From Escherichia coli (GTDB taxonomy: Bacteria > Pseudomonadota > Gammaproteobacteria > Enterobacterales > Enterobacteriaceae): a DNA stretch of 64,000 nucleotides. The position numbers were made by a program, and so were the translations under genes. The notes under the pieces were generated by a model. It was not told the DNA's origin. It did not search any database and saw only the letters and a list, made by a program, of their open reading frames with translations. The DNA is taken from assembly GCF_024700885.2 (NCBI RefSeq), contig NZ_CP117016.1. The stretch is one strand, 5' to 3'. Positions 15,485 through 15,676 of the stretch are shown piece after piece. Each line of letters begins with the position of its first letter. Within the stretch, counting starts at the first letter, position 1.

Positions 15485-15510
15485 AAAAATCCCCGCAGAG
15501 CGGGGCTCAG
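15485..15510 (-). terminator. second hairpin plus U-run distal to the BIME
   Basis: minus-strand GCCCCGC-UCU-GCGGGG followed by A-U6. Confidence 0.6.
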
Positions 15511-15534
15511 ACAGATATCAATGTGCGCTTTGTC

Positions 15535-15636
15535 ATGCCGGATGCGGCGTGAACGCCTTATCCGGCCTACAAAAACCTGCGAATTCAATATATTGCAGGA
15601 TACGTGTAGGCCTGATAAGCGTAGCGCATCAGGCAA
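15535..15636. repeat. BIME: two inverted REP elements with linker
   Basis: GCCGGATGCGGCGTGAACGCCTTATCCGGCCTAC and GTAGGCCTGATAAGCGTAGCGCATCAGGC separated by linker containing GAATTCAATATATTGCAGG. Confidence 0.8.
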
Positions 15637-15650
15637 TTTTTCTTTTAGCA

Positions 15651-15676
15651 AAAAAAAGACCCGCAGAGCGGGCCTT
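15651..15676 (-). terminator. rho-independent terminator after fbaA
   Basis: minus-strand GGCCCGC-UCU-GCGGGUC hairpin followed by U8. Confidence 0.7.

Follow-up and report, generated by a model that had tools for sequence, protein, structure and literature searches.

A BIME-1 element between fbaA and mscS of Escherichia coli is flanked by what are probably two copies of one ancestral terminator

We analysed a stretch of 64,000 nucleotides of Escherichia coli DNA (RefSeq assembly GCF_024700885.2, contig NZ_CP117016.1; hereafter the window), which covers the argO-mscS-fbaA-pgk region in K-12 orientation. Between fbaA and mscS, two terminator hairpins stand on either side of a bacterial interspersed mosaic element (BIME) that contains two repetitive extragenic palindromic (REP) sequences. 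Our analysis suggests that the proximal hairpin (H2) and the distal hairpin (H1) are probably two copies of one ancestral fbaA terminator, placed around an inserted element of the BIME-1 class, and that this arrangement was later partly lost. The spacer between the two genes measures 357 nt (fbaA end at 15699, mscS start at 15341) and reads, in the sense of transcription, H2, BIME-1 (15658 to 15508) and H1, with the following features.

14481 to 15341, minus strand: mscS, the gene downstream of the spacer
15484 to 15507, minus strand: H1, distal copy of the fbaA terminator, plus-strand sequence AAAAAATCCCCGCAGAGCGGGGCT
15508 to 15658: BIME-1 (RIB/RIP type), 151 nt, a long imperfect palindrome composed of a Y REP, a linker and a Z1 REP
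15536 to 15571, plus strand: Y-type REP (palindromic unit), assigned by REP typing
15572 to 15604: L linker, 33 nt, AATTCAATATATTGCAGG, with a motif of the integration host factor (IHF) type inside
15605 to 15635, minus strand: Z1-type REP, inverted relative to the Y REP, assigned by REP typing
15651 to 15676, minus strand: H2, proximal and primary copy of the fbaA terminator, in which 15652-15675 reads AAAAAAGACCCGCAGAGCGGGCCT
15699 to 16778, minus strand: fbaA, the gene upstream of H2 and H1 and the source of transcripts ending there

Both hairpins consist of a GC-rich stem-loop with a U-run directly after it on the transcribed strand, as in an intrinsic terminator. The stem-loop of H1 occupies 15491-15505 (plus strand CCCCGC/AGA/GCGGGG) and its U-run 15484-15490, while the stem of H2 lies at 15656-15676 with a run of eight U from 15651-15658. 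A terminator scan of the minus strand recovered them as 15505..15491 (six G-C pairs, then ATTTTTT) and 15676..15656 (nine pairs, then TTTTTT), with four terminator-like sites in the scan against 0.7 expected; their RNA folding energies are -11.6 kcal/mol for H1 and about -15 kcal/mol for H2. A repeat search joined the two in a 24-nt direct repeat at 168-nt spacing, identical at 21 of 24 positions (88%), with the inverted REP arms (15557-15571 / 15605-15619) between the copies. The initial annotation, which had described two near-identical terminator hairpins around a REP pair, both oriented for minus-strand transcription, is thereby borne out. One difference between the copies preserves the stem, a G.U pair in H2 being C-G in H1. 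Comparison with K-12 revealed the same 357-nt spacer with five substitutions, and alignment of the hairpin contexts showed that the likeness exceeds the stem: in K-12 and O55:H7 an 18-nt sequence, TTGCTTTTGGCGAAAAAA, also recurs next to each hairpin, towards mscS, and lengthens the duplication there to about 44 nt.

The likeness of H1 and H2 could in principle be due to chance, or to convergence between two terminators of independent origin, as a GC-rich stem, a short loop and a U-run are constrained sequence. We find this hardly credible, given a core identical at 13 of 13 positions including the loop, the 18 further matching positions in K-12-type alleles, and the same left-right identity at four other BIME-1 loci that carry different hairpins. 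The core 13-mer, CCCGCAGAGCGGG, occurs exactly twice in the 64 kb (15492-15504 and 15660-15672), against a chance expectation of 0.09 matches with up to one mismatch, and two matches were obtained in 1 of 100 shuffles. We also considered an inverted duplication by palindromisation and rejected it, since the loops read alike in the copies (AGA/AGA at fbaA, TTTC/TTTC at the tkt locus described below); because the loops have the same sense in both copies, the repeats are direct. An Rfam search returned no RNA family that accounts for the hairpins, naRNA4, GcvB and V_AS5 being sub-threshold. The whole spacer is bracketed by a perfect 10-nt inverted repeat, ATATTCCTTT / AAAGGAATAT (15345-15354 and 15688-15697), with one arm directly past the fbaA stop and the other in the ribosome-binding region of mscS.

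Mapping of RNA 3' ends was drawn from published Term-seq data (Adams et al. 2021, PMC7815308, Supplementary file 1), which were obtained in K-12 and not in the present strain, and gave two 3' ends, one in the U-run of each hairpin. The first is listed as primary for fbaA and lies at K-12 position 3070119 in lysogeny broth (LB) at an optical density (OD) of 0.4 (160,555 reads) and in M63 (120,854 reads), and at 3070118 in LB at OD 2.0 (54,607 reads; PMC7815308). It maps to 15653/15652 of the window, the fifth or sixth U past H2, in all three conditions. The second is listed as an orphan end at K-12 3069950, in LB at OD 2.0 only (44,902 reads; PMC7815308), and maps to 15484, the sixth U past H1, where the data fit termination or processing alike. 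According to these K-12 data, both hairpin copies are used in vivo, with H2 giving the main fbaA 3' end. Because two 3' ends were found instead of one, and because the likeness extends beyond the stem, the pairing of the two terminators proposed in the initial annotation is left standing. A strong Term-seq 3' end is also present at the hairpin past the BIME-1 of another locus, mscK-rsmS; this end (K-12 489902-489903, 226,826-336,140 reads) is listed just as 'antisense to mscK', and is the end of an rsmS-sense RNA at the hairpin directly past BIME-1.

BIME-1 of E. coli, or RIB/RIP, was reportedly described by Gilson 1991, Boccard & Prentki 1993, Oppenheim 1993, and Bachellier 1994 and 1997. The element at fbaA shows the features given in restatements of the BIME-1 definitions (PMC3333891, PMC2817692, PMC1187871), namely a Y REP with an inverted Z1 REP, a long L linker with an IHF consensus motif, and an extragenic 3' location. 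The putative IHF motif, ATTCAATATATTG at 15583-15595, is one mismatch away from the IHF consensus WATCAANNNNTTR. The Y and inverted Z1 arrangement is also found in both BIME-1 copies of the tkt locus, and the elements of the two loci are homologous over about 150 nt, arms included, with the linker AATTCAATATATTGCAGG identical in all three copies of the window and in 120 metagenome stretches, which were found by the linker pattern. At fbaA the outer arms have diverged, and at its fbaA-proximal end the element overlaps the A-run of H2. The 219-nt fbaA 3' untranslated region (UTR) RNA folds with z = -4.76. The single above-threshold Rfam match in the region is ES036 (CssrF 'sRNA', a small RNA family), which covers the linker at 15571-15613 with 42.5 bits against a gathering threshold of 37.6 bits; this family appears to model part of a repeated DNA element. 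Elsewhere in the window, single REPs without a partner occur at 38669-38700 and 44731-44761, one partial Y-type and one Z1-type.

The distribution of alleles bears on the age of the arrangement. Among 5,425 complete E. coli genomes with a match, 3,725 (~69%) carry the full long arrangement, so the layout is not an assembly artefact. In the remaining ~31%, the sampled genomes carry an fbaA allele that is 167-168 nt shorter, and the two short alleles that were read (SCU-387 and E166) have a single H2-type hairpin joined straight to the sequence beyond H1. A deletion between the TTGCTTTTGGCGAAAAAA repeats would yield exactly the short allele observed. In E. albertii we again found hairpin, BIME-1 and hairpin, with an H2 identical to that of E. 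coli and an H1 carrying derived bases common to E. coli H1. More distant relatives were taken from a cross-species scan with FbaA; among the matches listed, a set that does not include E. fergusonii and Salmonella, one terminator and no BIME was found in Citrobacter werkmanii, Citrobacter sp. FP75, Kluyvera, Enterobacter cloacae, two Pluralibacter, Phytobacter, Superficieibacter, Mangrovibacter and Pseudescherichia. Most of these outgroup terminators have the stem GGCCCGC/GCGGGCC and a T-run, and the H2 stem, GGCCCGC/GCGGGTC, matches the single terminator of the other genera. Judged by these stems, H1 would be the derived copy, its G.U pair having changed to C-G.

The short, single-hairpin allele might instead be ancestral within E. 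coli, with the long allele as a recent gain. Such an order of events would agree with the single-terminator state of the more distant genera, with the H2 type of the short-allele hairpin, which is closest to the outgroup stems, and with the ysgA-metE locus discussed below, where gain in one lineage is the parsimonious reading. Several observations make it unlikely. E. albertii has the long arrangement, and derived features are common to its H1 and that of E. coli; the divergence of H1 and H2 (21/24, with compensatory changes) implies age. In 950 nt of flanking sequence, the two short alleles differ from each other at 21 single-nucleotide polymorphisms (SNPs), whereas they differ from the window at 14 and from K-12/O55:H7 at 20-21; because their mutual SNP distance exceeds their distance to long alleles, the short alleles are unlikely to form one young clade. 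Moreover, deletion between the identical 18-nt stretches suffices to produce the short allele, and at the tkt locus empty sites stand on two flank haplotypes, each of which is also found filled.

The tkt locus, which lies in the same window, offers a second case of BIME-1 between copies of a hairpin, with the following features.

28339 to 29283: prohibitin-family gene, ending at 29283
29287 to 29308, 29461 to 29482 and 29635 to 29656: three identical copies of a 22-nt hairpin, AAGGGCCGCTTTCGCGGCCCTT, in an array from 29287 to 29656
29309 to 29460 and 29483 to 29634: two 152-nt BIME-1 copies downstream of tkt, between the hairpins
29677 to 31668, minus strand: tkt (transketolase), convergent with the prohibitin-family gene

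The hairpin and REP pattern that the initial annotation had seen downstream of tktA is thus present as three hairpins and two BIME-1 copies, which together make up a tandem repeat (unit 174 nt, 2.1 copies, 98% matches). Read in the sense of tkt, a U-run follows the hairpin at 29308..29287 but neither of the other two. The prohibitin-tkt interval is 403, 577 or 751 nt long, corresponding to zero, one or two units, in the roughly one-third of E. coli that have this gene arrangement. The empty site contains exactly one hairpin (...TAAAAAAAGGGCCGCTTTCGCGGCCCTTCTCAC...), the one-unit allele reads hairpin, 152 nt, hairpin, and the present window carries the two-unit allele. In 60 evenly spaced records, five had no unit, 13 had one and two had two, the locus being absent from 40; the two-unit allele is accordingly rare (2/60 records, and at most ~150 genomes at ≥99% identity). 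Each of two flank haplotypes is found with empty as well as with filled alleles, so the change at this locus is recurrent. The second unit of hairpin and BIME-1 presumably arose by unequal exchange between hairpin copies. In K-12 derivatives the prohibitin-tkt arrangement is missing, and the query finds a match there with its BIME portion only. In its 3' part, the prohibitin-family open reading frame contains a 33-nt tandem repeat (29071-29148, 2.4 copies, 77% matches).

To place these two loci among other BIME-1 copies, we compared a sample of about 17 loci, comprising a metagenome scan with the linker pattern (120 stretches representing ~12 E. coli-type loci), two K-12 loci and one locus from a viral contig. 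The viral-contig scan had returned six loci, one of them usable, and 250 kb of K-12 that were read contained three L-type BIMEs. At nine loci the full-length BIME-1 measures 152 nt, and two others have lengths of 151 and 154 nt; the element has inverted ends (CAGATTGTTGAC...GTCAGCAATCTC), directly against which GC-rich hairpins lie. At 5 of 17 loci the left and right 45-nt outer flanks resemble each other beyond ~99% of 272 mismatched-pair controls. These are the fruA-side locus, tkt, katE-chbG, fbaA and ysgA-metE, with mscK-rsmS as a degenerate sixth.

At fbaA-mscS, prohibitin-tkt, ysgA-metE and mscK-rsmS, four loci in all, we obtained filled and empty alleles whose difference amounts to the element and a single repeat copy, and at four loci the repeat corresponds to the stem-loop to within 1-2 nt and abuts the full-length 152-nt element on both sides. 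At ysgA-metE, the filled allele is found in an Escherichia relative (~93% identity) as ACGGGTGGCGTTGCCACCCG / 152-nt BIME-1 / ACGGGTGGTGTTACCACCCG, the hairpin copies again differing in a stem-preserving manner (GGC/GCC versus GGT/ACC). All sampled E. coli are ~171 nt shorter there, no genome matched at 80% coverage, and the two E. coli alleles that were fetched contain a single hairpin, CCGGGTGGTATTACCACCCGG. At mscK-rsmS, 3,880 genomes are filled and have a hairpin on either side, and sampled others are 170 nt shorter, with one hairpin in each of the two that were fetched. The katE-chbG and fruA loci also have flanking hairpin repeats, but E. coli offered no simple empty allele for them, as the flank differs, and they are of no use for polarity. 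At a further locus, cueO-gcd, 2,741 genomes are filled and sampled others are 155 nt shorter.

Three other stretches contain related structures. In L226 (200-330; K-12 497.8 kb, adk-hemH), a boxC-type repeat with BIME-1-like outer arms (GAAAGCGCGCAC ... TTATCAGCAATCTC) abuts a terminator hairpin with a Term-seq 3' end at 497939/40; mosaic elements of differing kinds seem to have common ends and a common site beside terminators. L217 (11380-11700; K-12 111.4 kb, mutT-yacG) holds a cluster of four REPs whose central pair is separated by a long, non-consensus linker, an atypical BIME. The metagenome contig L176 has a join inside a BIME-1 linker: on one side stand the 3' end of arsC and a left half from a different BIME-1, on the other the right half of the fbaA copy with H2. 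We set this contig aside as probably an assembly chimera through the repeat, the alternative being recombination between BIME-1 copies.

The initial annotation had further suggested that terminator-BIME modules duplicate as units. This holds at tkt, where the 174-nt unit of hairpin and BIME-1 is repeated in tandem with 98% identity, but is not supported as a means of spread between loci, and at fbaA one BIME stands with a duplicated local terminator and no duplicated module. That terminator and BIME together form modules which are themselves mobile, or duplicate from locus to locus, would draw on the tkt tandem and on the homology of the fbaA and tkt elements over ~150 nt including the arms, yet we consider it very improbable. 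Hairpins are wholly different between loci and alike within a locus: the tkt hairpin GGGCCGCTTTCGCGGCCC is unrelated to the fbaA hairpin CCCGCAGAGCGGG, and within the 64-kb window the latter is found at the fbaA locus only. Module spread is unsupported because the hairpins are locus-specific, because the empty alleles at four loci retain one local hairpin, and because other genera have a single homologous fbaA terminator. Duplication of the unit was seen only locally and in tandem, as unequal exchange between flanking repeats predicts. An origin of the hairpin at a donor locus was likewise rejected, the hairpins being locus-specific and kept in empty sites.

We therefore return to duplication of the local terminator, for which the following course of events may be proposed. 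Before E. coli and E. albertii diverged, a BIME-1 would have inserted at the foot of the single fbaA terminator, leaving the terminator stem-loop on both sides as a direct repeat of at least 17-24 nt (~44 nt in K-12-type alleles). H2 would then give the main fbaA mRNA end, and read-through RNA would cross the BIME and end at H1. A long palindrome between direct repeats would be unstable, and about one-third of E. coli may have lost the BIME and one hairpin precisely, restoring a single terminator, while at tkt unequal exchange between hairpin copies could have added a second unit. The loss could proceed as slippage between the direct repeats that bracket the palindrome, like the precise excision of Tn10. 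That insertion and duplication were one and the same event is our inference, as is the manner in which the duplication came about.

Two mechanisms could account for such a duplication. In the first, each strand would be broken at a different foot of the hairpin or cruciform, and fill-in after joining of the element would copy the palindrome and nothing more; the regular cases, in which the repeat coincides with the stem-loop, speak for this model. In its general form, the model would have BIME-1 integrate, as a discrete unit of 152 bp, at a foot of a terminator hairpin or cruciform, where breaks set by DNA structure duplicate the whole stem-loop of 16-22 bp, a proposal that we regard as rather doubtful for the present. 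In the second, hairpin-forming DNA would be the site of a template switch during replication, or of the repair of a break, with variable junctions as the result. Template switching or slippage, or break repair, instead of staggered cleavage, with only some events producing a duplication, is a substantial possibility, although we would not wager on it. It would explain why the repeat length varies across loci, and is in line with the microhomology between native sequence and BIME arm at both fbaA junctions (ATCT, and GCCAAAAGCAA versus GACAAACGCAA), with the cueO-gcd junction, at which -3 nt and +8 nt are seen and duplication is absent, and with the series of zero, one and two units at tkt, as in a slipping region. 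No microhomology is evident at tkt, however, and the correspondence of repeat and stem-loop at four loci, with the full 152-nt element abutted on both sides, is more regular than microhomology events would lead one to expect.

Duplication of the local terminator on insertion also has to be weighed against a number of observations that count against it. The polarity at fbaA depends on a single genome of E. albertii. The repeat measures ~16, 18, 18-19 and 22 nt by length difference at four loci, and up to ~44 nt by alignment at fbaA, a variation not expected of a transposase with fixed stagger. The exact fbaA junction is ambiguous because the native flank TTGCTTTTGGCG resembles the BIME arm TTGCGTTTGTCA. 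Y1 transposition, the type of the usual suspect RAYT, makes no target duplication (PMC3333891). At cueO-gcd (filled in K-12, empty in SE11) the BIME-1 lies 3 nt from a hairpin foot with no hairpin copy opposite, 3 nt having been lost at the junction and 8 nt of unknown origin being extra, and several further BIME-1 loci have a hairpin at one side only, or none. The locus sample is also skewed towards well-conserved copies, because the exact linker pattern was used. In view of cueO-gcd and of the loci with a one-sided hairpin or none, insertion beside a hairpin is common, and hairpin duplication is frequent but not obligatory. The recurrent duplication of the hairpin is the interesting part of these results.

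Several aspects of this arrangement are already known, namely the structure of BIME-1, its location at the 3' ends of transcription units and its presence or absence among isolates. The elements described here share with BIME-1 (RIB/RIP) the inverted Y and Z1 REPs, the long linker with an IHF-type site, the extragenic 3' position and the presence/absence polymorphism; they differ in that the local terminator hairpin is duplicated around the element, which is absent from the restated descriptions. BIME-1 is also said to occur singly per locus (PMC3333891), as it does at fbaA but not at tkt, where two tandem copies are split by a hairpin. We found no mention of flanking hairpin or terminator duplication at a BIME in the literature searched; the originals of 1991-1999 were outside that search, so a prior description is possible.

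REPIN/RAYT systems, which use a Y1 HUH transposase of the IS200/IS605 lineage, resemble the present case in that a doublet of REPs can form a long hairpin and that the target lies beside a DNA hairpin, the latter as expected of single-strand, hairpin-recognising enzymes. The REP doublet is present here, and rayT is annotated in K-12 at 247637-248134, a region outside the window. IS200/IS605 transposition differs in leaving no target duplication, whereas most filled/empty pairs here show 16-22 nt or more; insertion without target duplication, the Y1 expectation, is at odds with fbaA and three other loci, and cueO-gcd alone fits it. The MITEs (miniature inverted-repeat transposable elements) show similarity in their discrete size (152 bp here), in termini that are inverted (CAGATTGTTGAC...GTCAGCAATCTC), in direct repeats at the flanks and in the existence of filled and of empty sites, but the repeat seen here is long and variable, follows the stem-loop instead of a fixed stagger, and is absent at cueO-gcd. 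CRISPR spacer integration duplicates a palindromic repeat with the assistance of IHF. The likeness is one of geometry only, as no cas or restriction-modification genes are found here and the insert is a fixed 152-bp repeat. Precise excision of Tn10 and Tn5 is a RecA-independent slippage between short target repeats that is stimulated by inverted repeats. The short fbaA allele and the empty tkt site would fit such a precise loss of a palindromic insert from between direct repeats, although the repeats here, at 17-22 nt or more, exceed those of the transposons in length and form hairpins of their own. Comparisons of Helicobacter pylori genomes led to the description of 'insertion with long target duplication' (mentioned in PMC1643837); there too an insert is flanked by tens of bases of duplicated target, an analogy of geometry only.

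The duplication creates tandem terminators, as reflected in the two mapped fbaA RNA 3' ends, and the length and structure of the 3' UTR vary between strains, with ~69% carrying the long and ~31% the short fbaA allele. The resulting structures of repeat, palindrome and repeat are unstable, and expand and collapse. How REP sequences and BIMEs spread has been a question for forty years, and the family of enzymes considered as candidates leaves no trace; the question would become testable with a reproducible footprint, consisting of the local stem-loop on both sides of a fixed 152-bp unit together with empty sites. Should the literature of the 1990s already contain the flanking duplication, our results would be a confirmation across 5,400 genomes and not a discovery. 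If structure-set insertion is true, it would be the first concrete footprint of REP/BIME insertion, and it would explain the siting of BIME-1 at 3' ends, the paired terminators of many genes, and the flipping of BIME-1 loci between zero, one and two copies.

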